Part shown: positions 10,709 through 61,142 of the stretch, in pieces
Layout of the letters: the number at the start of each line of letters is the position of its first letter
Position numbering within the stretch: the first letter of the stretch is position 1
DNA from: Candidatus Poribacteria bacterium
Lineage (GTDB): Bacteria > Poribacteria > WGA-4E > JAJDTR01
Length of the DNA: 64,000 nt
NCBI GenBank assembly: GCA_965232235.1
Contig: OZ246960.1
Coordinates: forward strand, 3,405,397-3,469,396
Direction of reading: 5' to 3'
Program-made: the position numbers and the translations under genes
The notes under the pieces: model-generated
Databases searched by the model: none
What the model was told of the DNA's origin: nothing
Seen by the model: only the letters and a program-made list of their open reading frames with translations

Positions 10709-12934
10709 ATGCAACAGTTTTGTAGAGTCAAACTTGTGATACTTTGCTTAGTCCTTATTTCAACGGCGAATCTCAATGAATCGGATGCTGATTGGCCCGC
10801 ATGGCGAGGGGCAGCTCAAAACGGTGCGTCCTCGGAGACAGGTTTAGTTTCCACATGGTCGCAGGACGGCGAAAACCTAATATGGAAAGCGGATTTCATT
10901 GGTAGGTCTACACCTATCGTTCTTAACAAGCGTGTATACGTCATCGGACGCGTTGGGGAAGAAATTACGGAGCAGGAGAGAGTTGCCTGTTTCGACGCTG
11001 AGACGGGGGGATTGCTTTGGGAACATCGATTCAATGTCTTCCACAGCACGATTCCGTTTAACCGACTCGGTTGGACAAGCCTGGCCGGTGACGCGGAGAC
11101 AGGCAATATATACGCTCACACTATCAGCGGTATATTCGCCTGTTTTGACGGCGACGGCACGATTGTCTGGTCACGCTCCTTAACGGAGGAGTTTGGGCGT
11201 TTCACTGGCTACGGCGGACGTGTTGTCACGCCTGTGGTGGACAAAGACCTTGTAATTCTGAGTTTCCTCAATACGAGTTGGGGCAGCCACGCCGCAATGC
11301 GCCACCGCTATTTTGCTTTTGACAAGCGAACCGGGGATGTTGTATGGACGACAACTCCCGGTGGACGCCCCAAAGACACAACTTATCCCGTGGGCGTGAT
11401 AGCCGAGATCGAGGGGCGCCGTTTGTTGATTGACGGTAATTCGGACGGTCACGTTTATGCAATGGACGCGGCAACGGGTGAAAGAGTGTGGGGCTTCCAG
11501 GTTAGTCAAGGACCGCTCAACGCTTCGGTGGTGGTAGATGGAACGCGGGTCTACGCAAGTCACAATCGGGAGAACACGGACACAACGGTCATTGGACGTG
11601 TCGTCTGTATTGACGGAACGGGTACCGGTGATGTTTCCAAATCGCATGAAGTCTGGCGCGTCGATGGCATTGAGGCGGGTTATAGCTCACCGGCATTTCA
11701 CGATGGACGACTTTATGTTGTGGATAGTGCGGCAAACCTGCACTGTCTGAACGGGGAAACCGGTCAAGTTCACTGGACACACAGTCTCGGCACGGTTGGC
11801 AAGGGGTCTCCTGTGGTGGCGGATGGGAAAATTTACGTCACTGAAGTCAACGGCCATTTCCACATCCTGCAACCGGGTACCAACGAGTGTACGTCACTTG
11901 ACACAGAGCAGATTGAAAGACATTCCGGGCGCTACGCGGAGATTTTCGGGTCACCGGCTATAGCCTACCGTCGAATTTACTTTGCCACCGAGACAGGGCT
12001 CTACTGCTTAGGGAAAAATGAATATAGCGTGGCAGCGCTTTCAGGTACCAAAGCACCTGAGGCCTTGAGATATGGTCGGGGCAAACCTGAAACCGCCAAT
12101 GGGGTAACCGCACCTGCTTCGGTCCGAATCGTTCCTGCTGAACTCTTGAGCACACCGGGGGAAACGGTTCAATTCAACGCCCGTGTCTTTGATGAAATAG
12201 GTAATGCATTAGAAGAGAAAGTTGGTATGTGGTCGATTGACGGGTTGAAGGGTGCAATCGACGACAGCGGAACGTTGAAACTTGAAGCAGGCGACGTAGG
12301 ACAAGCGGGTACGGTCTCTGTCCAAGTTGACGAGGTACGAGATTCCGCGCGTGTCCGCGTCATTCCCGATTTGCCGTGGCACGAAGATTTTGAATCAATC
12401 GCGGAAGGAAAGACTCCCCCACACTGGGTGCGTGCAACGGGGCGATTCGCTGTCCGTGAGATGAACGGGAACAAGGTTCTCGTAAAACCACCTGCGCGTC
12501 GCGGGTTACATCGGTCCAATGTATATATCGGTCGTCCAAACATGAGCGGTTACACGGTTCAGGTCGATTTAATGGGGACCAAGCCCAAGCGGAATCTTCC
12601 TGACATGGGACTTATCGCGAATCGCTATACGTTAGAGATGCAAGGCAATCATCAGCGGCTTCAAGTCCTTTCTTGGCGGTCAGACCTGCGTATGGCAGAG
12701 TCGGTTGACCTCAAATGGGAAGCTAATATTTGGTACACCATGAAAATGACGGTCGAACTCGTTAACGATAAAGCGATTGTGAAAGGGAAGGTTTGGCAAA
12801 AAGACACACCCGAACCCGGCGAATGGACGATTACAGTCGAGGATCCGCTGCCGAACCGTGAAGGAAGTGCGGGCATTTATGGCTATTCACCCGCCGAGAT
12901 TTATTATGATAACCTGAGAGTTTGGGAGAACTGA
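10709..12934 (+). CDS. Secreted PQQ/BamB-like beta-propeller protein with Ig-like and C-terminal beta-sandwich domains
   Basis: Signal peptide then DWPAWRG, repeated DAxTGxxxW and SP-V-DG blades, C-terminal YYDNLRV domain. ATG 10709 preferred over 10619. Confidence 0.85.
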   Translation: MQQFCRVKLVILCLVLISTANLNESDADWPAWRGAAQNGASSETGLVSTWSQDGENLIWKADFIGRSTPIVLNKRVYVIGRVGEEITEQERVACFDAETGGLLWEHRFNVFHSTIPFNRLGWTSLAGDAETGNIYAHTISGIFACFDGDGTIVWSRSLTEEFGRFTGYGGRVVTPVVDKDLVILSFLNTSWGSHAAMRHRYFAFDKRTGDVVWTTTPGGRPKDTTYPVGVIAEIEGRRLLIDGNSDGHVYAMDAATGERVWGFQVSQGPLNASVVVDGTRVYASHNRENTDTTVIGRVVCIDGTGTGDVSKSHEVWRVDGIEAGYSSPAFHDGRLYVVDSAANLHCLNGETGQVHWTHSLGTVGKGSPVVADGKIYVTEVNGHFHILQPGTNECTSLDTEQIERHSGRYAEIFGSPAIAYRRIYFATETGLYCLGKNEYSVAALSGTKAPEALRYGRGKPETANGVTAPASVRIVPAELLSTPGETVQFNARVFDEIGNALEEKVGMWSIDGLKGAIDDSGTLKLEAGDVGQAGTVSVQVDEVRDSARVRVIPDLPWHEDFESIAEGKTPPHWVRATGRFAVREMNGNKVLVKPPARRGLHRSNVYIGRPNMSGYTVQVDLMGTKPKRNLPDMGLIANRYTLEMQGNHQRLQVLSWRSDLRMAESVDLKWEANIWYTMKMTVELVNDKAIVKGKVWQKDTPEPGEWTITVEDPLPNREGSAGIYGYSPAEIYYDNLRVWEN

Positions 12935-49912: not shown

Positions 49913-52117
49913 TTATCGTATTACCGCCATCTTTCCAAACTCATGGACATGCTGCTCATTGCGGGAAGCGGAGAGGACGTAGAGATACACTCCGGTTGCA
50001 ACTGAGCGGTTTCGATTGGATTCAAGATCCCAAACGAAGCGACCGGAGCCTATCACATCACGCAGCAGGTCTGAGTGAACCACATCGCCGGCAGGTGTAA
50101 ACACGTCCAGTTCTATTTCGTCGACAAGTTGAAAGTCCGGAATTGTGAAATCGAACGTTATTTGCGTTTCTCCAAGCGGAAGCGGGTTTGGGAAGACGCG
50201 AACTCGAGAGACTTGTAGTTCGCCGGATCCTATCTTCCCTTCACGAACGGTCAGATGATAGGAGTCTAGGGCGTTGAATCCAACTCGTGATTCGACAAGA
50301 ATGAACAACGGTTCGGCTTTGACCGGGCGGAACACGATGTGCTGGTTGGTAAGCTCCGTGGTTACTCCATCAATGATCTTTCGTCCTGACGAGTCGAGCA
50401 GAGACAGTCGATATTCGACATCATGAGGAATGTCGGTCAGCGTAATGATGATAGCGTTTCCGATGGCCGCATCAAGACGGTAAAAATCGCGCCTATCGTC
50501 CACATTGAACAGGAAGGACTCGTACCGTTGGTTGAGTTCGATAGGATATGCGATTTCAGGATAGTCGTTAGGTTCGTATGTGTCTCCGAATGAGACCAAT
50601 AGCGGGATTAATGGTCCTTCTGCACCTATGTTGGTTATTGAAATCCCGGTGGGCGTTCCATCGTTCGCGTTGCTGTTTGGACGGCTCGCAGGGGTGAAGG
50701 ATATCTGGTTGTCATTTACGGAGTATGCGGCTCCATCGGTAATAAATCGGATATCGATCTGATCCGGATTCTTTGGATTTACGCCGCGGTGATTCGGGTC
50801 GTTCGGATCTTCCAGCGAGATTTGCCCGGCTGCATCGAAGTGGGCTGTCTGCGGACGGAACACAGTTTCGTCAATATGCCAGATCAGAATCCCGGATTCA
50901 GGCAGGTGTGTATCATACATGGCGCCGGATACCCGATTTCGGTTCTCAATAAGGAAGAATTCGGTGATTTTACCCGATCTGTCCACGTTACCAGGAATGT
51001 CGATTTTGAAAAGCACATTATGGGCTGGCGGCAATTCAAAACTCGGAATGGACAATTGCGCCCCAGTTTCCTCGACCTCCACCGGTTCGATCCAACCGCG
51101 CCGCCCGTTTTCCGGACGAGCGTCGAAGTCCCATTTGAGATAACCAATAATGTGACTGGGATTCAACCCGTTTCCGATACCGTCGGTCAAATCGCCCTGA
51201 TAAGGACCAGCAAAGCCCATTAATCCCCATTTGTGATCGTTGGCATCGGTGAAAGGTGTACCGTATACATCGGGCGCGCCGAAATCGTGGAAGAATTCGT
51301 GAAAATATATTCCCAGGTGGGGTTTGGTGAAACTCGGTTCTTCTGCTACGATCGCGGCGCTTTCAATTCGTACGCCATCAAGAACGGTGTTGACATCTCG
51401 CACGAGTATTGACCAGATGTCGCCCGGCTTCAAGGTCGAGGCTTCATCGTCTCCGGCGTGGATGATGAAAACGTGGTCGACAACGCCGTCATTATCCCGG
51501 TCATATTGAGAGAAATCGACGATAGCATCGACCGCAATGCACGCTTCACGTGTAAGCTCTCTGCACTGCACCTCGCTTATTCGTCCCTCTCCGTAATACG
51601 TCATCGGCTTTGCCGCGCGAACCCAGCTGTCACCTGTCGGAATGACTCCGCCCGCGGGTCCAGGCTGAATGTTCATCTGTCCGTAGGAGACTTCGTCATA
51701 GTAGGTTTTTAGAGAGACCTCGTCCTCGCCCAAAAGGAAGCCGTTTATCTCGGCACCAGTGCGACTTCCCGGCCGATCAGAGAAATCTACCTTTATACCG
51801 AGAACGTACTCGACACCGTCCGCCTGCGGCGCTGCACGTTCACGGACAAAACAACAACCTTCAAGAGCGCGTCGAAACTCCCTCTCACTTTCCGGCAACT
51901 TCGATCTAAACTCTCCGGTAACGGGATTCATGTCGAAAAAGAGATGTGGATTGGGCGGGGCGGCATGGCAGATGGCGATGAGACCTAAAGAGAGCGGTAT
52001 GTACAGGAAGAACGAAAAGGGCAAATAAATAGTGCGCGTTCGCCAACACGGGCACGATTGGCTCTTGGGTCGTCCAGCGTGTGCACCTTTCAATATGCTT
52101 ATGCTCCAGCCTTCCAA
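49913..52117 (-). CDS. M6 (immune inhibitor A) family metalloprotease with PPC-like and C-terminal FlgD/CTD-like domain
   Basis: YYDEVSYG, DFSQYD.D.DG.VD, HAG, HEFFHDFGAPD, WGLM, FLIENR, GILIWHID, DTYEPND, and C-terminal VFPNP...WD...ATGVYLY. True start probably downstream of 52117. Confidence 0.88.
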   Translation of the reverse strand: MEGWSISILKGAHAGRPKSQSCPCWRTRTIYLPFSFFLYIPLSLGLIAICHAAPPNPHLFFDMNPVTGEFRSKLPESEREFRRALEGCCFVRERAAPQADGVEYVLGIKVDFSDRPGSRTGAEINGFLLGEDEVSLKTYYDEVSYGQMNIQPGPAGGVIPTGDSWVRAAKPMTYYGEGRISEVQCRELTREACIAVDAIVDFSQYDRDNDGVVDHVFIIHAGDDEASTLKPGDIWSILVRDVNTVLDGVRIESAAIVAEEPSFTKPHLGIYFHEFFHDFGAPDVYGTPFTDANDHKWGLMGFAGPYQGDLTDGIGNGLNPSHIIGYLKWDFDARPENGRRGWIEPVEVEETGAQLSIPSFELPPAHNVLFKIDIPGNVDRSGKITEFFLIENRNRVSGAMYDTHLPESGILIWHIDETVFRPQTAHFDAAGQISLEDPNDPNHRGVNPKNPDQIDIRFITDGAAYSVNDNQISFTPASRPNSNANDGTPTGISITNIGAEGPLIPLLVSFGDTYEPNDYPEIAYPIELNQRYESFLFNVDDRRDFYRLDAAIGNAIIITLTDIPHDVEYRLSLLDSSGRKIIDGVTTELTNQHIVFRPVKAEPLFILVESRVGFNALDSYHLTVREGKIGSGELQVSRVRVFPNPLPLGETQITFDFTIPDFQLVDEIELDVFTPAGDVVHSDLLRDVIGSGRFVWDLESNRNRSVATGVYLYVLSASRNEQHVHEFGKMAVIR

Positions 52118-52503: not shown

Positions 52504-53274
52504 ATGTTCACTTACGACTATCACATTCACACCAGACTTTCCCCGCACACTGATAAGCATCTTAGCATTGACAAGATTATCCAGATTCAACAAAACCGCG
52601 GGATGGAAGAAATTGGGATTACCGATCACGACTTCAGCTATGGCTCGCGAACCAAAAACATTGATCGGGCGCGCAATGCCATTGATGAGTGTGAGTCGTC
52701 AATCTCCGTCCGATTGGGGGCAGAATCGCACATGCTCGAATACCGGGTGCCGTCAATCGATATTCGCTTCGCGGCGTACTTCGATTATATCTTGATGGCG
52801 CCAAATCATTACCATTTTCGCGGTGTGGCGCGTCCGACTCATCTGCTGGACCCAAAGAAGGTTGCCGTGCACGAGCTATATATGTTTGAAGCGGCGATTG
52901 CGTGTCCGATAACTGATGTCGTAGTGCATCCGTTTGTCCTGTCGCCCGAGGTTTTTGGCTTTTCCAAAGAAGAATTCTCAGCCTTCGGGAACGAAATGAT
53001 GGAGCAAATCGAGCAGAAGCGACTGATAAACTTACTCGATATGGCATCACAGCGCGGGATTGGTATTGAGATTAGCCCGAGGTTCATCAAATACAATCAG
53101 CGGCATCTCGTCGAGTTCTACCAGATGTGTTTGGAACGGGAAGTGAAGTTGATGATCGGCAGCGATGCGCACAACGCCGAGCAGTTGGAGGAGTTAACGT
53201 TGCTTGAACCCGTGCTTGAGGCGTTGGGGGTTGTGGAGGAGCAGTTGTGGCGACCGAGGGAATGGCAGTGGTAA
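52504..53274 (+). CDS. PHP-domain phosphoesterase
   Basis: DYHIHT, ITDH, HP, GSDAH. Confidence 0.9.
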   Translation: MFTYDYHIHTRLSPHTDKHLSIDKIIQIQQNRGMEEIGITDHDFSYGSRTKNIDRARNAIDECESSISVRLGAESHMLEYRVPSIDIRFAAYFDYILMAPNHYHFRGVARPTHLLDPKKVAVHELYMFEAAIACPITDVVVHPFVLSPEVFGFSKEEFSAFGNEMMEQIEQKRLINLLDMASQRGIGIEISPRFIKYNQRHLVEFYQMCLEREVKLMIGSDAHNAEQLEELTLLEPVLEALGVVEEQLWRPREWQW

Positions 53275-53397
53275 AGGTATAACCCGGAAGGTAGAGGTGA
53301 ACGAAATTCGCCGACTTGTAAAATATCGTCGAAAGCCTTTAAACGAACCACGGAACCCATCGTCAAATTTGATTGTAACTGCGCACCTAGGAAAAAT

Positions 53398-54507
53398 ATG
53401 GCTATTAATGAAGACATATATTCACTGAAGCACTTTCGAGACCAATTGAAACCACACGGGATTGAAGTTTGGAATTCCTCTGAATCGTTACCAGAGGAAG
53501 TCCTTCAGCAACTTGTCCTAAGCGATGAAGATTTCGTTTCCGATCAACCGCGTGCTGAGGAATTACATCCTTCTAGACAGATTAGCGACCAATGTAAGTT
53601 GCCCGAGGGAACTCCTGAAATCCGAATCTCCCATTTTGTTGACGGTTCACCACGCACTGTCAATACCGGTTTTCTCTTGGGAGCAGATGGTATCTCTTAT
53701 CCTGTCGCATTAGCACACGTCGGAGCGGCGTCAGTCACTTTTGACAATAGGCGATGGCGTGAAACAGGTTTTGAAGAGAAACATCTAATATTGTTAGCTT
53801 ACAAAGGCATGGGAATTGATATCCAAGTCAGCGGAAAATGGAATCTTGAAGATCCCACCGACCAACGTGGTGGACGGACAATTAATGTCACGGATACCGT
53901 TGAAATGCGTGGTGCCGCAGTCAGAAGGACACGGCGAAGAATGAGAAACTGTGAGAAACAATTGGTCAACGCATTAGCGGAGGATTTTGCTGAGGAATGG
54001 ATTGCAATTGATGGAACTCTTTTTGAAATTGAAGGATATTCAGATTTAAAGAATTTTAGAGTCATTGGGATTAGCAAATCTTTTACGCTCGATCCTATCG
54101 TAATGAAGCGGGCCATCCCAGAACGCGTAGGTCATCTTATTAAAATCTTGACTGATATACCAGTAGGGTCACGTAGTCCCGTCTATCAACTTACGCCGGA
54201 AATAAACCGTCCGGAAAAGTATACTTACATGTGGTTTGTGAGAATTCACGACGCTAGGCAAAATCCTATAAGTGGAATTGTCAAAATAGAATTACCTCCC
54301 TCCGAATGCTATTTAGACTTTGACCGAAGGGAGCGCACCATAGACGCGATAAGTCACAAATTGTTTCGGCTTCGTTACCCTTATCTGTATGATAATAGGC
54401 GGGGCGAATCATTCCTCTATCCAATTTACGTTGCCGAATCGCTGATGAAAAGTAAGTTGAATTCCGTAGAAAAAATAAGAGGTATTTGGGAATCGAGCCA
54501 ATATTGA
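53398..54507 (+). CDS. nurA: NurA-like nuclease (RNase H fold)
   Basis: FVDGS, IAIDGTL, IGISKS, WFVRI, PIYVAE..MKS. Directly upstream of a HerA-like ATPase. Confidence 0.75.
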   Translation: MAINEDIYSLKHFRDQLKPHGIEVWNSSESLPEEVLQQLVLSDEDFVSDQPRAEELHPSRQISDQCKLPEGTPEIRISHFVDGSPRTVNTGFLLGADGISYPVALAHVGAASVTFDNRRWRETGFEEKHLILLAYKGMGIDIQVSGKWNLEDPTDQRGGRTINVTDTVEMRGAAVRRTRRRMRNCEKQLVNALAEDFAEEWIAIDGTLFEIEGYSDLKNFRVIGISKSFTLDPIVMKRAIPERVGHLIKILTDIPVGSRSPVYQLTPEINRPEKYTYMWFVRIHDARQNPISGIVKIELPPSECYLDFDRRERTIDAISHKLFRLRYPYLYDNRRGESFLYPIYVAESLMKSKLNSVEKIRGIWESSQY

Positions 54508-54518
54508 GGAGGAATAGG

Positions 54519-56243
54519 GTGAATCAATCAGTAATTGGAAGAGTCGCCGCTACGAAATTGCAAGGCAACAACAGCCGTGAATTCTACTTTTGGATTGAGC
54601 CTGAGACACAAATCAACCCTTTAGATTTGATTGTGGTTAGAGAGGAGATTACGGTAGGACAACCTGAATCTATTCCACGAGATGTTTATGCCCAGATTTT
54701 GGATATCACAAGTTACACTGATGCCGAGAGCTTCCTAGAGGTATTCGCCTCGACAGACTTTGGGAACGTCAATGTTGAGAGCGATATGGACCGCATTGCA
54801 TACAATGTCGCAAAGGCGCAGGTACTCGGTACATCAGGTAGTGTCCGAATGCCCGTCCAGTTCAACAGTTCTGTTTTCCTTGCCGACGAAGCTGCGATAA
54901 TGAGACTGTTGAAGGTAGAGGAATTAGATGTAACATACAGGTTACCGATAGGATATATTGAGCAATCGGACGGTGTTAAAGTGCCTGTCTGTATGGATGC
55001 GAGGTGGTTGACAGGCCCTGATGGGGCACACCTAAATGTATCCGGCAAGACGCGTTTAGCGGCAAAGACTTCCTATGTGCTGTTTCTCGTTTCGTCAATC
55101 CTTCAAACACAGAATGATACGGCAGTTATCATTTTCAACGTTAAAGGAAGTGATTTGCTACAGATTCATCAACCCAATAATCTACTTGCCGCAGATGTTT
55201 CTCCAGATGCTTTGGATAGTGGGCGAAAACAAAAGCTAGACGAACTAATACAGGCATGGGAGTCCATGGACTTGAAGGCCATGCCATTTGATGAAAACAA
55301 GGTGCGCTACTTTCTTCCGGCCCATAGGCATAGCGTAGAGAGAATCAACGCAGATCGCATAAATCTTCCAACGGACTCAGATGTCATTACATCGCTACCC
55401 GATAACTACTATGTCTATCGCTACGGTCTTGATAACGTAAGAAGACGGATACGATTGTTACTGTCGAGTTTCAATTTAAGTGATGCTCAAGAGCAGTTCA
55501 TAAGTGCACTTGACAACGAAGATAATTCATACGCATTGACGGCTCGCAACTTTCGCACTCTCAGTCAACAACTTGGTAACATAGGACAGAACGGAACATA
55601 CCTCAATGCCTTTTCCTCAACCGTCCGAGTCGTGAAGCGTTATATCGACACTGTTGCGAACAATAGGACAACTGGAGTGTTTGATTATGAAGCACACACC
55701 TTTGCAAGTGCTAAGTGGAGGCTCCCTTCAGACTTTATACAGAATTCGCTGGAAGCAGGGCAAACCTTGGTAGTTGACATTGCGCGTGTCAACGAGGCTG
55801 AACAGCAGTGGGTTTTTGGCGATGTCCTTACTGCTGTTGAGCGGTTGATGGAAGGTGATAGGGACAATAAGCCTAGGAAAGTTGCTATCTTCGTGGATGA
55901 ATTAAACAAATATGCCCCTTCAGGAGCGCATTCGCCGCTTACCATGGACCTGATTGATATTACGGGTAGGGGCGGTGGATTGGGCGTCATATTGTTCGGC
56001 GCAGAGCAATTTGCCTCAAGAATCCACCCGCAGGTCTACGGTAGTTGTGCGAACAAAGCTTTTGGTTTGACTGATGCGACGGAAGCAGGAACCGAGCCTT
56101 ACCGTGCATTCCCAAAAGAAATAAGAGATAGGCTCTCTGAACTGGAGCGTGGTGAGTTGTTAGTCAGCTCCGACTTCTTCGGACAGCCATTGCGAATTAA
56201 GTTTCCCCGTCCTGCCTGTCGCAAACAGGAAGACGCTGATTAG
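54519..56243 (+). CDS. herA: HerA-like ATPase with N-terminal HAS-barrel
   Basis: IGRV..T..F.FW barrel, HLNVSG....AKTSY variant Walker A, IFNVKG.DL, IFVDELNKYAP Walker B, GAEQ, L..GE. GAGGAGG RBS before GTG 54519. Confidence 0.85.
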   Translation: MNQSVIGRVAATKLQGNNSREFYFWIEPETQINPLDLIVVREEITVGQPESIPRDVYAQILDITSYTDAESFLEVFASTDFGNVNVESDMDRIAYNVAKAQVLGTSGSVRMPVQFNSSVFLADEAAIMRLLKVEELDVTYRLPIGYIEQSDGVKVPVCMDARWLTGPDGAHLNVSGKTRLAAKTSYVLFLVSSILQTQNDTAVIIFNVKGSDLLQIHQPNNLLAADVSPDALDSGRKQKLDELIQAWESMDLKAMPFDENKVRYFLPAHRHSVERINADRINLPTDSDVITSLPDNYYVYRYGLDNVRRRIRLLLSSFNLSDAQEQFISALDNEDNSYALTARNFRTLSQQLGNIGQNGTYLNAFSSTVRVVKRYIDTVANNRTTGVFDYEAHTFASAKWRLPSDFIQNSLEAGQTLVVDIARVNEAEQQWVFGDVLTAVERLMEGDRDNKPRKVAIFVDELNKYAPSGAHSPLTMDLIDITGRGGGLGVILFGAEQFASRIHPQVYGSCANKAFGLTDATEAGTEPYRAFPKEIRDRLSELERGELLVSSDFFGQPLRIKFPRPACRKQEDAD

Positions 56244-56303
56244 GAAGTTTATCTAGGTTTTATCAGGTGCATCCTATCCGACACAATTTATGAGAGGAAA
56301 GTT

Positions 56304-57455
56304 ATGCAAGAAGATAGCCTTGAAACTGATAAACAGAAGATGCTAGTATGCCGCTTAGAGGCCCGGTACTACGAAAAGTTTCTTCCGCTTGTATATTCAA
56401 GAAGCTACGCGAAACAATTTCTAAATCACAATTTAGACGATTTGCGGCTTTGGGAAAGTAGCAAGGATAAAATTGTCATATCTCTTCCGCCCCCGCCAAC
56501 AATCAAAGAAAATCCAGAAGCGAAACCTGAGCGTCTTGGCAGAGTCATTAAACGGCTGGCATGGTGCTATCAACAGCCGTTAAGCGGGAAGACAGCGATA
56601 GCGAAGGGAGTATTTAGGACGCTGTTATCGGCCACGGACAAAGTTGCTGTTGCGTTTAGTGGTGGTCAAGATAGTTTGGTCGCTCTGCACTTGGCTTTAC
56701 AAATCAAGCCGGATATACCTGTGATGCTTGTCAATACTGGAATCGAATTTCCGGAAACATTATCGTATGTTCGACAATTGGCCCAGGAGTGGGGGTTAAA
56801 CTTTTACGAAGCCAATGCACAAGTAAACTTTTGGAGACTCACTGAGGAACAAGGAATCCCAGTTGCGGGACGCGGCAATACAACGTTTATGCGAGAGTTG
56901 TCCGAGAAGGCCGGAGTGAAGTTGTCTAACTCATGTTGCCGACGGATGAAAGAAACGCCTGCGCGCCAGTTCTACACCGAACACAACATTGAAGGTACCG
57001 TGACAGGGCTACGTGTGTCCGAAAGTTTGATGCGAAAAATGAATTTCGCCGACTACGGTGCCTTGCGATATAGCAGCACCTACAAGACTCTTATCAGTTG
57101 GCCACTGTATGCTTGGAGAGACGAAGACATCGCTAACTATGTCAAGAAAAACAATCTTCCTTTAAACCCAATTTATGATATGGGGTATCAACGCGTAGGT
57201 TGTTGGCCATGCATGCAAGACATGTTCTACAAAGACTCTCGCTTGTTCACACTGCAAAAAGAACATCCGAACATGTATAAAACATTACGTAAGAAGTTCG
57301 GCAAACAGATGATGGATTTATTAAAGGTCTGGGCAGGGTTAGAGGAACGCAATCTCACGGAAAAGCACCTTGATGGACTTTATAGAGCTTGCGAGTTTGA
57401 GCGATTAGATGAGTATCGAAGAGAAAAACAGAAAGCCAAAAAAGTCACGTCATGA
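56304..57455 (+). CDS. PAPS reductase-family PP-loop protein
   Basis: VAFSGGQDS, NTGIEFPET, CC, GLRVSES..R, PL..W, NPIY..GY.RVGCWPC, and an N-terminal extension of about 90 aa. Confidence 0.88.
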   Translation: MQEDSLETDKQKMLVCRLEARYYEKFLPLVYSRSYAKQFLNHNLDDLRLWESSKDKIVISLPPPPTIKENPEAKPERLGRVIKRLAWCYQQPLSGKTAIAKGVFRTLLSATDKVAVAFSGGQDSLVALHLALQIKPDIPVMLVNTGIEFPETLSYVRQLAQEWGLNFYEANAQVNFWRLTEEQGIPVAGRGNTTFMRELSEKAGVKLSNSCCRRMKETPARQFYTEHNIEGTVTGLRVSESLMRKMNFADYGALRYSSTYKTLISWPLYAWRDEDIANYVKKNNLPLNPIYDMGYQRVGCWPCMQDMFYKDSRLFTLQKEHPNMYKTLRKKFGKQMMDLLKVWAGLEERNLTEKHLDGLYRACEFERLDEYRREKQKAKKVTS

Positions 57456-57673
57456 TTCGCTGTTACTTACGCAATCGGTTGACCGAAGCGCACCACAATA
57501 GATATTCAAGACCTTTCTCAGTGTCAAATATCCAAGTCCTATGATACCGTGCCGTTGTGATTTGAGGACATGTATTTTGACGGACAAAGGTCATCCACTA
57601 AAACACATGTATGGACTCTTCGTCGTAGCAAAAAGACTCAGACATATGATGTCGGATTATTCCCCAACAGACG

Positions 57674-58588
57674 TCAATAACTCCAAACGTCGTGAAGTAT
57701 GAACGCATCAAAGGTCTTTATTTTCTGATGAAACCTTGGTTCATTGGCTACAATAGGCGGATCGAGGTAATATAGTGGCAGATCGCCAAATACATGACAA
57801 AAGACCAGATAGACGTCGGGTGAAAACGTTGAACTGATCCCGTGCGTTCCTTTTCGTTGAATGTCATTATGGTAAAGAGCAACATACTTAACTTGATGAA
57901 CCTCAAGAATCTTTGCCAGCACAAAACGGTCAACAAAAATAAGTTTCATTCTGTCCTTGCTTGAGGTTTTAATGGATAACAACGTATCTCTTGAATCTAT
58001 CTGAGAGCGGGAGGAGTGAAGCGATCCCGCCGTGCTCATAATAGCATCTAAGGGAACATTATAAGAGACGTTAATAGAAGGAGTTTTCATACTAAAGATA
58101 AAAGCATCATTAGCAATACCTAAGTCAGAGAGAAGGGATTTGACAAAATCCTCAAATCGCTGACCGAAGTTTTTTCTCGCTGCCTGCGAATCGGGAGACA
58201 AATCTAGAACACAACCTATTGACTGAACCACAGTATAGAGAAGTTTGACAATTGAATCTCCTTCGGCAAACTGTCTTAATTTTTGAGACAAAGAATCCAA
58301 ATCACCATGGGACTCCCGGAGTACGCTGACTAAATCCTCAAATTGATTCTTATATGAAATCAACTCACTAACGTCCTGTACAAAGAGGGTTTCGTTAATA
58401 GGTCGTAAATAACGAGACATTTGCCGCGAAAAGGGGAGAATATAATGCTGATATCGAGCACTACTTACGGGAATAGATTCAGTAGTTGACAAAATAGGTC
58501 GAAGACAGGCCATCCCCAGTTCAAGAAAATCCTTGAGAGACAGGATCTGCTGACACGCACGATCAATCAACTCATTCGTTTCTTTCAT
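57674..58588 (-). CDS. Putative type II restriction endonuclease (PD-(D/E)xK fold)
   Basis: G.RFE, PLD...LSIKTSSKDR. Overlaps the MTase end. AT-rich. Confidence 0.65.
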   Translation of the reverse strand: MKETNELIDRACQQILSLKDFLELGMACLRPILSTTESIPVSSARYQHYILPFSRQMSRYLRPINETLFVQDVSELISYKNQFEDLVSVLRESHGDLDSLSQKLRQFAEGDSIVKLLYTVVQSIGCVLDLSPDSQAARKNFGQRFEDFVKSLLSDLGIANDAFIFSMKTPSINVSYNVPLDAIMSTAGSLHSSRSQIDSRDTLLSIKTSSKDRMKLIFVDRFVLAKILEVHQVKYVALYHNDIQRKGTHGISSTFSPDVYLVFCHVFGDLPLYYLDPPIVANEPRFHQKIKTFDAFILHDVWSY

Positions 58589-59525
58589 GAATAAATGCTA
58601 ACTGTTCTTCAACTCCTTCCTCGTCATCTATACTGGTGGCGTTTCGCAGTTTTTCACGCCGCTGCGTAAGTTCTTTCTCATTCATAGTCACTCTATCTGA
58701 AGTAAACTGCTCAGGATGTTCTAGCCGTTCCTTAATGATACTGCAATAGTTCTCATCAATTTCACTGCCAAGCCATCTGCGGTTATATTTCTCACAAATT
58801 ACATATGTTGTTCCTGACCCACCAAACGGGTCTATGACCAAATCACCATCATTACTTGAGGCTAAGATGTATTTTCGGATTAGCTCTAGCGGCTTTTGAG
58901 TAGGGTGGGTGGTTTTTTCATTGGTTGTGTTACAAAGAGTTGGCATCTCAATGACATCTCTAGGTTTCGCACCCAGAGGATTTGGGGTCCAAATATATTT
59001 CTTACCATTTCCATATTGGGATGTTAGTGCTTGTGGATGTTCACGATATTTTAACGTATGATTGTTATAAGGGATACGAACAGCATCAATGTTAAAAGTG
59101 AATTCCCGGTTTTTACGCAGATGCAGAATACTTTCGTGGGAGCGCCCCCAATCTTTGCCTAGGTTGGCTTTATTACGATAAAACCAAGTCAACCATTTGC
59201 AGCCTGCAAACATTGGAGATACTGCTACTTTAATGTGGGCAAGTATCTCGGGGAATCCCATTATATACATCGTCCCTCTATCAGACAAAACTCTATGAGC
59301 TTCCTGAATCCACTCCATACACCAGTGTACATAGCACTGCTGAGACTCAAAAGTGTCCCATTCAGCTTTTTTGATGTTGTAGGGCGGATCAGCGAATAAC
59401 ATCTCAGCTTCACCACTCGGACAAGTTTTGAGCCATGAGGTGCAATCTTCTTGGTATAGCCTCCCAAGCTTCGTTTCAAAGAAACATTCTGTCCTTAACA
59501 TATTTTTCGGTCCCACTCTACTCAA
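58572..59525 (-). CDS. DNA amino-methyltransferase (N6A/N4C, beta class)
   Basis: ADPPYN precedes HPTQKP and DPFGGSGTT. Confidence 0.95.
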   Translation of the reverse strand: MSRVGPKNMLRTECFFETKLGRLYQEDCTSWLKTCPSGEAEMLFADPPYNIKKAEWDTFESQQCYVHWCMEWIQEAHRVLSDRGTMYIMGFPEILAHIKVAVSPMFAGCKWLTWFYRNKANLGKDWGRSHESILHLRKNREFTFNIDAVRIPYNNHTLKYREHPQALTSQYGNGKKYIWTPNPLGAKPRDVIEMPTLCNTTNEKTTHPTQKPLELIRKYILASSNDGDLVIDPFGGSGTTYVICEKYNRRWLGSEIDENYCSIIKERLEHPEQFTSDRVTMNEKELTQRREKLRNATSIDDEEGVEEQLAFIHERNE

Positions 59526-60088
59526 TTAGGTTATCTAGTCAAGAATCGTTGTTGTTAATCAACCCAAAGTGGTATTTCGCGTTCTCAACTTCCCTGGTTA
59601 TGTTTTCTAAACCATTTGGTCTACCATTTTTTATTGGCGTTTACCAAGATTTTTTCTTGAGAATGATTCGTCCTTTAGGACTCATGGCGCATCTTTGCCA
59701 TGTTTTCGTACCGGAATCAAATAACTTGCTGCAGCGACTAGAATTTTACCTCACATTGGCAGAAGTGTCAACATTCACGATTAATTGATTACGTAAGGTT
59801 TCGCAGAAAAAGTAAACTCCGGGCATTACCCATCCTAAATTTCATTGTGCTGAATAACTTGACTCACATGATGTGCTATTGAGCGTGACACAAAACGGCG
59901 GCATTTACCCCAACGCTGTCAACGAACGCGACATCTCGAAAATGACTTCCATCCTGACCCAAACAGTGGGGGCGATTCAGTGAGGCCCTATGTGAATTCC
60001 CCCCAATCCATCGGTAGCTCCTGCATCTAATTTCTTGCATTGCATTGCCCTTATTTCTCGCAATCGCGAGCGATGTGACAAGCCTATC

Positions 60089-60778
60089 TCAGACTATTTT
60101 TTCTCGAGTCCCAAAGCAAAGGTTTAAGAATTTATCCTCAATTCTTACGCGGATTCCACGACTCTTGACCGAACCATTTTCATGCACGTGCATCTTTAAA
60201 TCAATAACAATCATGCCTTTGCGAATCAAGTCTAAGAAAACATACGCATCTGGATTTGAAAGAACATACGCCTCGTTAAACCAAAACTCATCCTTCAAAT
60301 CAGAATTGAGACGGGTATCGGCTTGGACGAGAACCAACGCAGGCATTTTCTTCTTAAACGTCTCAATCACAGCATCCTCTGTCCATTGGGCAACGAAAGT
60401 CTTATCTACATGATTTAGCCTGACTGTGTTTCCCGATACTTTCAAGAAAAGGCCGTGATAATTTGGTGTCTTGCTCACTGTGCAATACAGAGTAGGGTTG
60501 CCGAGTGTATCGACATAGCCGTACTCTTCAATCAAGCACTTCTGCTTTAGTTTCCAAACGCCGCGATTAAGGGTAAACATGGTAACTCGATTCGAGACTC
60601 CATTCCTTTGAGACTTTATTTCTATTTCGCCGAGATTGGGTGAATTCAATTTGTTTTCCTTTAACTCAAGGAGAGACTCCAGTGTGTATCCGATGCCAGT
60701 GTTGCCTTTTCTTAATGAAACGACGTACCCCACCTGTTTAATTTCAGACAGCTTTTCCGTTAACTCAGCTAGATTCAT
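60089..60778 (-). CDS. MvaI/BcnI-family restriction endonuclease-like protein, possibly inactive
   Basis: R.GNTGIGYTLE.LL...EN, EIKS.R, TMFT, KKK, E.FWF. PN in place of the catalytic PD. Confidence 0.85.
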   Translation of the reverse strand: MNLAELTEKLSEIKQVGYVVSLRKGNTGIGYTLESLLELKENKLNSPNLGEIEIKSQRNGVSNRVTMFTLNRGVWKLKQKCLIEEYGYVDTLGNPTLYCTVSKTPNYHGLFLKVSGNTVRLNHVDKTFVAQWTEDAVIETFKKKMPALVLVQADTRLNSDLKDEFWFNEAYVLSNPDAYVFLDLIRKGMIVIDLKMHVHENGSVKSRGIRVRIEDKFLNLCFGTREKIV

Positions 60779-61142
60779 TCAGCAACACCTTGATACAGAG
60801 ACTTGGCTGGACGATCGGCAAATCCAGAATTTAGGCTCAATAGACGATGAGTAAGCCTCCATGAATCATTGTGTGGCAGAGGTTGATTCAGGTCAATCGA
60901 TCTAGCTTGACGTCGTATCAGTTTCGTGCTATGCTCTGCAAAAAGTAATATGATCTTCCCCCAAGATAGATTATACACAACTACGAGAACGATGTCAAAC
61001 ATTACTTAACGCAACAGTAGTAAAATTTCTCAGGTATCTTACCGCCCCTTAGGGGCTGATCTGCTTAATTTCTCGGAATCTCTGTTAATAGTTGGGTGTG
61101 GTGAGCGTCGCAGAAGATTCTATGAAAAGGAGCGAAAAACTC

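Follow-up and report, generated by a model that had tools for sequence, protein, structure and literature searches.

What does a nuclease-translocase pair do when it is followed by an enzyme with the fold of a sulfur-assimilation reductase? This question is raised by a 64,000-nucleotide stretch of Candidatus Poribacteria bacterium (GenBank assembly GCA_965232235.1, contig OZ246960.1, positions 3,405,397 to 3,469,396 of the forward strand), here called the window, in which nurA and herA precede a gene for a protein resembling 3'-phosphoadenosine-5'-phosphosulfate (PAPS) reductase. We conclude, with a probability of roughly 0.58, that the three genes form a Tdp-like modify-and-restrict cassette, in which the PAPS-fold enzyme marks host DNA, probably by phosphorothioation, and HerA-NurA destroys unmarked DNA. 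In window coordinates, the genes are as follows.

53398-54507, plus strand: nurA, 369 amino acids (aa), a Deinococcus-type NurA-family nuclease with a predicted TdpB-like role
54519-56243, plus strand: herA, 574 aa, a HerA ATPase/translocase of the D. radiodurans type
56304-57455, plus strand: PAPS-fold gene (gene 3), 383 aa, a PP-loop enzyme of the PAPS/APS (adenosine-5'-phosphosulfate) reductase fold and predicted DNA modifier

All three are co-oriented, with gaps of 11 bp (54508-54518) and 60 bp (56244-56303), as the first-pass annotation of this DNA had reported. The 11-bp gap presupposes GTG 54519 as the herA start, which is the likely one and is preceded by GAGGAGG; the mechanical open reading frame begins at TTG 54486. 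The stretch was covered by contigs from three of four sequencing runs, which may include the source sample, with zero substitutions or indels listed.

Do these genes belong together? Their distribution shows that nurA, herA and gene 3 are one conserved, sporadically distributed, mobile and rare unit. Of the phylum's 176 genomes, three carry a close orthologue of gene 3. Full-length nurA was found in the same three, plus one 36-residue fragment, and herA again in the same three Poribacteria genomes, or 3 of the 41 relatives searched. The trio is present in 2 of 10 genomes of the genus. A scan with a HerA profile yielded 17 genome, 54 metagenome and 7 viral loci, of which 14 carry a close HerA (58-77% identity) and the remaining 64 a distant one. 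In the loci with a close HerA, gene 3 is the next gene downstream of herA in all 11 that have room for it; the other three contigs stop short. The gene immediately upstream of herA is nurA in 13 loci, and the last contig begins inside herA. In one locus, L050, herA is split. The genes flanking the trio vary by host and include groEL, a btuF-like gene, IS3 and a DUF433-like gene. None of the 64 distant loci carries the PAPS clade of gene 3. Protein searches returned 46 close HerA clusters and about 80 PAPS-clade clusters, the latter with archaeal members, and Microcoleus sp. FACHB-672 appears in both sets. By indirect matching, 13 of the 46 HerA clusters apparently share a contig with a PAPS-clade protein; these include G009, from the same genus as the source genome, and G029, from the same order. 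The herA starts of L042 and of L050/L045 are near-identical, while their gene 3 alleles are visibly different, which hints at exchange of modules within the cassette.

Viruses and plasmids were searched as well. A single-protein scan of viral sequences found no copy of the trio, and the seven viral loci from the HerA scan carry a distant HerA, with gene 3 not found in them. In plasmid and phage records the gene 3 protein had no match at 80% coverage, and HerA was seen on plasmids in only five distant records. On neither of two plasmids with a match, a DndC-like one from Deinococcus and one from Caminibacter, is herA or nurA annotated. The close gene 3 orthologue was not found in 401-genome samples from each phylum of G176 and G177, which indicates rarity at most, as a positive control was absent.

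What kind of enzyme does gene 3 encode? Its product matched PF01507 (E 1.5e-35), and profile searches likewise bore out the NurA and HerA identities first assigned to its neighbors. The best structural matches of the gene 3 model (pLDDT 93) were APS reductases (Z 17.1) and flavin adenine dinucleotide (FAD) synthase (Z 15.5). A PP-loop, SGGxDS, lies at residues 119-124, and the CC and CxxC cysteines of APS reductases are present as C211/C212 and C300/C303. This CC...CxxC arrangement fits the 4Fe-4S ligand pattern of APS reductases, and the four residues are predicted 4Fe-4S ligands; C363, the fifth and C-terminal cysteine, may act as a sulfur carrier. When the 73 PAPS-clade members no shorter than 330 aa are compared, 72-73 of them keep the PP-loop and each of the five cysteines (73, 73, 72, 73 and 72 of 73 for C211/C212/C300/C303/C363). 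The protein also has a clade-specific N-terminal region of ~90 aa, well predicted in the model, and helical C-terminal additions. The C-terminal ECG(L/I)H motif of CysH was not found in it, and NCBIfam CysH-type models scored E 1e-27, below the family cut-off. A genome-wide PF01507 search gave four matches, namely gene 3, one CysH and two partial ones treated as CysD-like, with no second full-length candidate beside gene 3. The separate CysH (L183) has the ECGLH tail and adjoins a cysteine synthase gene. Judged by its motifs, then, the gene 3 product belongs to the PP-loop enzymes, has an Fe-S site by prediction and is not the housekeeping CysH, in agreement with the PP-loop Fe-S enzyme first proposed.

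In a quick tree of 71 rows, the members of the gene 3 clade share a single branch (SH-aLRT 99) that sits with phage PAPS-like proteins, whereas the CysH, CysD and DndC-like rows fall elsewhere. The tree does not prove a phage donor, because it is rich in phage rows picked by similarity. In the Atlas, the protein falls in a 54-member cluster in which Cyanobacteriota are commonest, and the next clusters are mostly viral. Viral contigs L103-L182 encode many putative enzymes of a PAPS-reductase-like phage family that has the CC/CxxC cysteines too, often next to methylase or terminase genes.

Are the nuclease and the motor intact? The gene 1 product had no Pfam, NCBIfam or PADLOC match, and a single-sequence search reached only E 0.56. 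A profile search connected it to D. radiodurans NurA (drNurA; 7f6d_H, E 1.8e-12), and Foldseek with its model (pLDDT 83) ranked drNurA first (E 5e-14), followed by TM1739, SsoNurA and then the TdpAB chain 8wfd_G (E 1.5e-5, 14% identity; 8wet_G gave E 5.9e-4, 11%). The RNase H-like fold and the catalytic Asp/Lys/Arg of NurA nucleases are present. Across an alignment of 26 homologues, D82, E186, D205 and K227 are invariant and R335 reaches at least 90% conservation. The equivalents of drNurA K201/R309 are kept, on a mapping in which the numbering of the PDB chain is taken to be shifted by a 20-residue tag; equivalence to D53 was assigned by motif.

HerA matched D. radiodurans HerA (drHerA; 7f6d_B) at E 9e-30 with a single query and at E 2e-110 with a family profile, and no Pfam or NCBIfam model matches it. 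Its Walker A K183, Walker B D460/E461 and sensor Gln Q497 are invariant, and the equivalent of drHerA K217 is kept. According to PMC9960219, R513 of drHerA is a trans-acting residue and R495 and R552 are required for translocation. In the alignment, the window HerA has G486, Ser and Thr at the R513, R495 and R552 positions, respectively. The arginine-finger position is Gly in 44 of 46 close HerA proteins (the other 2 were not parsed), whereas 73 of 74 distant HerA proteins have Arg there. The P-loop, SGKTRLAAKTS, has gained R179, and this third-position Arg occurs in 45 of 46 close HerA proteins versus Gly in 74 of 74 distant ones. The simplest inference is that the P-loop Arg replaces the missing finger in cis; the alternative would be a motor that is inactive or activated by a partner.

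Is the location of the trio informative? The surrounding features are listed here.

52504-53274, plus strand: PHP-domain gene, core flank of the slot, outside the cassette
53275-61091, no strand: defence slot of variable content, flanked by the core PHP and cytochrome P460 genes and holding the trio, a type II restriction-modification (R-M) pair and an MvaI-type restriction endonuclease (REase)
57674-59525, minus strand: the type II R-M pair, a slot neighbor outside the cassette
57674-58588, minus strand: type II REase-like gene of the pair (PADLOC REase_II E 8e-17)
58572-59525, minus strand: N6/N4 methyltransferase (MTase) gene of the pair (PF01555 E 8e-49)
60089-60778, minus strand: MvaI/BcnI-type REase gene, a further restriction gene beyond the pair
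49913-52117, minus strand: gene for a protein with an Immune inhibitor A-type M6 peptidase domain and a C-terminal FlgD/CHU-like domain, also syntenic in G009

The PHP-P460 interval is a defence hotspot, and the trio sits in it. In the eight genus genomes that do not have the trio, the slot is empty (144-184 bp) in three, filled by other defence genes in four and occupied in one by a single gene without an assigned family; in G007, P460 was not found within the 15.6 kb examined. The defence contents, each from one genome, are a type I-like R-M system with an REase-TIR protein; a PDC-S37/Hhe-like helicase-nuclease interrupted by IS1595; an MvaI REase accompanied by an MTase plus a TIR effector; and a type III R-M system with a MORC-like protein and a C5 MTase. 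The GC content of the trio is 45.0% versus 50.4% for the genome, and the PHP gene (50.3%) is like the genome. In G009 the trio occupies the same slot, but the genes after it are another MTase and the MvaI-type REase. In G029 it lies elsewhere, after an IS3-like element and ahead of a TIGR02391 gene.

Two neighbors were considered as components and ruled out. The first-pass annotation had suggested that the PHP gene may take part, and this did not hold up: the gene is core, occurring in 10 of 10 genus genomes, and was not found beside the trio outside the genus. The type II R-M pair converges on the trio as first described; G009 has another MTase instead, and the pair is missing from the G029 locus. 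R-M neighbors differ among trio loci and are incidental. The MvaI/BcnI REase, which had gone unmentioned, is without the MTase that comes next in G009. With no full-length homologue of that MTase in the genome, the REase is an orphan that may be inactive or silenced. Elsewhere in the hotspot, genes without a Pfam or PADLOC match at L200:1246-1998 (G001) and at L206:13699-14727 and 11269-11784 (G004) are candidate defence genes.

Is this a known system? The first-pass annotation had proposed a possibly undescribed defence or modification module. The three genes did prove to be conserved and mobile as a unit, within a hotspot of defence genes, but the architecture is already known from tdpABC; the NurA and HerA appear to be of different protein lineages. 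PMC12914056 distinguishes four phosphorothioate (PT) systems, dnd, ssp, tdp and brx, and describes tdpABC, published in 2025 (An et al., PMID 39820821), as a three-gene system in which tdpC alone makes the PT, at GpsATC; its section 6 gives as the mark of a PT system a PAPS-reductase-domain enzyme beside a P-loop NTPase. Like TdpABC, the window cassette is a three-gene unit of nuclease, ATPase and PT-synthesis enzyme, the last in a predicted role, and the solved TdpAB complex (8wet/8wfd) contains a NurA-fold chain. TdpA is reportedly a HerA hexamer and TdpC a PAPS-reductase-domain protein. The 2025 Tdp study of An et al. reportedly described an adenylated intermediate and a PT that blocks both translocation and nuclease. 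Among the differences from TdpABC, the window NurA matches drNurA (E 5e-14) much better than it does the TdpAB chain (E 1.5e-5, 6e-4). No TdpAB entry appeared, up to E 10, in PDB sequence searches made with three profiles or queries for HerA. The altered P-loop and missing arginine finger of the window HerA are another difference. The cassette is called Tdp-like by anatomy, with Tdp membership unproven.

Other relatives were compared in the same way. The D. radiodurans NurA-HerA pair (7f6d; PMC9960219) has the same HerA and NurA subfamilies with the Walker motifs kept, whereas the window trio is sporadic, lies in a hotspot and has a fixed PAPS-fold partner. In Dnd, Ssp and BREX type 4, a PAPS-reductase-domain enzyme (DndC, SspD, BrxP) likewise adjoins a P-loop NTPase, but the NTPase of the window cassette is HerA. 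The PADLOC check proposed at the outset, run on seven window proteins, gave BrxP (E 1e-17) and SspD (E 1e-6), both PT proteins, as the best matches of gene 3, weak and at the domain level; dndD/E, sspB/C and brxC/Z/L were not seen in the cassette. The Thermus ICEth1 nurA-tdtA-methylase operon, as outlined in PMC5365140, also joins, in the same order, NurA, a HerA-family ATPase and a predicted DNA modifier, with a restriction enzyme beside them; its third gene is instead an N4/N6 methylase, ICEth1 carries an integrase and att sites, and DNA donation is the role for which it has been tested. CysH APS reductase shares the fold, the PP-loop and the four-cysteine motif with gene 3 and differs in its ECGLH tail, the N- and C-terminal additions and the clade. 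By the tests run, the cassette is not Dnd, Ssp, BREX-4 or CysH. Literature searches found no description of a NurA-HerA-PAPS trio, although supplements, the Tdp paper and subscription papers may list such loci, and NurA is named 0 times in the main texts, supplements excluded, of PMC12839542 and PMC10853773.

How would a Tdp-like cassette work? The PP-loop of gene 3 would spend ATP to adenylate the DNA backbone, and the adenyl group would then be swapped for sulfur from a housekeeping cysteine desulfurase, via the predicted 4Fe-4S centre and C363. The HerA ring, which would still be an active ATPase despite the loss of the finger, would feed DNA to NurA, and degradation would follow wherever no mark brought translocation to a halt. 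Linkage, mobility, the hotspot location, the folds and the residue conservation are observed; the DNA substrate, the sulfur chemistry, mark-sensitive restriction and the ATPase activity are predicted. As for a sulfur source, the genome has, outside the cassette, four strong matches to aminotransferase class V, the cysteine-desulfurase family.

Several points weigh against this proposal. The cassette has no cysteine desulfurase gene of its own. Neither PADLOC nor NCBIfam gave a DndC match for gene 3, and the BrxP and SspD scores do not single out PT chemistry, because they are comparable to generic PAPS-family scores. The motor could be weak or inactive, since the equivalents of R513, R495 and R552 are lost. 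The linkage rests on fewer independent cases than the counts suggest, because several loci are near-identical pairs, and the counts leave out the neighborhoods of archaeal and ~50%-identity PAPS-clade members. P0288, a PAPS protein of 75% identity, is indirectly paired only with a distant canonical HerA, P0207, and is a possible exception. Finally, none of the best 80 of 189 viral PAPS-like loci is near HerA or NurA.

Does the wider family bear on the choice of mark? A DndC-like gene (PADLOC E 6e-58) lies upstream of herA in L038, L039 and L092, with scores to DndC of E 1e-55 to 1e-61 in L038/L092. A gene of 428-431 aa, possibly NurA-like, follows herA in these loci. These are a second pairing of the drHerA-type HerA family with a PAPS-domain (PT-type) enzyme, perhaps closer to Tdp in its modifier. 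The DndC-like trios (L038:6950-11043, L039:3205-7298, L092:1947-6054) come from Dehalococcoidia and metagenomes, and HerA ends of this type also occur in L090 and L091. A partner scan of the distant loci that covered 59 of 121 listed neighbors showed a DruA/DUF4338 gene immediately ahead of nurA in 10 loci (L027, L029, L030, L033, L055-L059, L064). These loci, from Chloroflexota, Gammaproteobacteria and metagenomes, stand outside the Druantia context, and DruA/DUF4338-NurA-HerA is a candidate for a separate modify-and-restrict system. In the same scan a MORC-like ATPase gene came directly after herA in six viral loci, one of which also has a radical SAM gene; the IMG/VR contigs L096-L102 run NurA, HerA, MORC-like ATPase and a large unassigned gene, with the radical SAM gene in L102. 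On three plasmids, a distant herA is followed by sbcD-sbcC-type genes. At L034:7908-10931 and L083:7920-10979, a drHerA-type HerA is fused to a C-terminal FHA domain, with NurA not detected upstream. Partners thus look exchangeable, several of them plausible DNA modifiers, because sister loci carry DndC-like, DruA-like, MORC or sbcCD genes.

A more ambitious version of the Tdp-like cassette is possible, although we would not bet on it. It would be an independently assembled fifth PT-defence route, in which a phage-derived sulfur enzyme was captured by a rewired Deinococcus-type NurA-HerA with a P-loop Arg in place of the finger. The family would then be a plug-in restriction platform that reads marks from interchangeable writers (the gene 3 enzyme, DndC-like, DruA-like and MORC/radical-SAM).

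Could the mark be something other than PT? The same self/non-self logic would be served by backbone adenylation without sulfur, by base thiolation or by another base modification, as could be the case for a DNA modifier of phage origin. The gene 3 enzyme groups with phage PAPS-like proteins, apart from the DndC-like ones (quick tree and Atlas). Among 31 loci of these phage relatives, in a scan that covered 65 of 111 listed neighbors, four have a DNA methylase gene alongside and four a terminase gene. The nuclease module is also not tied to sulfur, since its sister pairs have a DruA-like partner in 10 loci. Against this, the five conserved cysteines suit sulfur handling, and the characterised defence-linked PAPS-domain proteins DndC, SspD and BrxP make PT, according to PMC12914056. 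We regard a different mark as improbable, with about one chance in six.

An explanation with no DNA mark is less probable still. Here, the PAPS-fold protein would be a regulator, sensor or antitoxin that restrains HerA-NurA until infection, or a finger donor, and the outcome would be abortive infection. The loss of the finger (Gly in 44/46 close versus Arg in 73/74 distant HerA proteins) coincides with the partner-carrying clade, the partner has its clade-specific, well-predicted N-terminal extension, and other HerA defence systems are reported to be effector-HerA complexes. Yet the full catalytic apparatus of the PAPS-fold enzyme is conserved, and the P-loop Arg of 45/46 close HerA proteins could stand in for the finger in cis.

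Equally unlikely, in our estimate, is a DNA-processing module that serves end-resection repair or the donation of DNA, in the manner of drNurA-HerA or of NurA-TdtA transjugation in Thermus, gene 3 being an accessory. drHerA and drNurA are the closest solved relatives, distant family members sit with sbcD-sbcC on plasmids, and ICEth1 nurA-tdtA-methylase promotes DNA donation (PMC5365140). However, just 2 of 10 genus genomes have the trio, the slot it fills also takes unrelated defence systems, and neither sbcCD nor an integrase was seen beside the trio in the close loci. The weakest explanation, that gene 3 is a metabolic APS/PAPS reductase or FAD synthetase and a chance neighbor of nurA-herA, would fit its best structural matches and its CC...CxxC motif, which APS reductases share, but is largely refuted by the 11/11 linkage across distant hosts, the separate CysH beside cysteine synthase, the distance of its clade from CysH and CysD and the absent ECGLH tail.

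What would the Tdp-like cassette mean for these organisms? Cassettes of this kind would escape PADLOC 2.0, because it has no model for the window NurA and gives only weak HerA matches. The proposal suggests that, of the bacterial NurA-HerA pairs taken for repair genes, many act as modules for restriction, and the cassette puts a natural HerA variant on offer, one whose arginine finger is gone and whose P-loop has acquired an arginine. If the proposal is true, it would provide the first testable function for the large phage PAPS-reductase-like family with the same cysteines, and the apparently different protein lineages would mean convergent assembly. Minimal one-gene PT defence would then extend beyond the extremophile Tdp to sponge-associated Poribacteria, cyanobacteria and possibly archaea.

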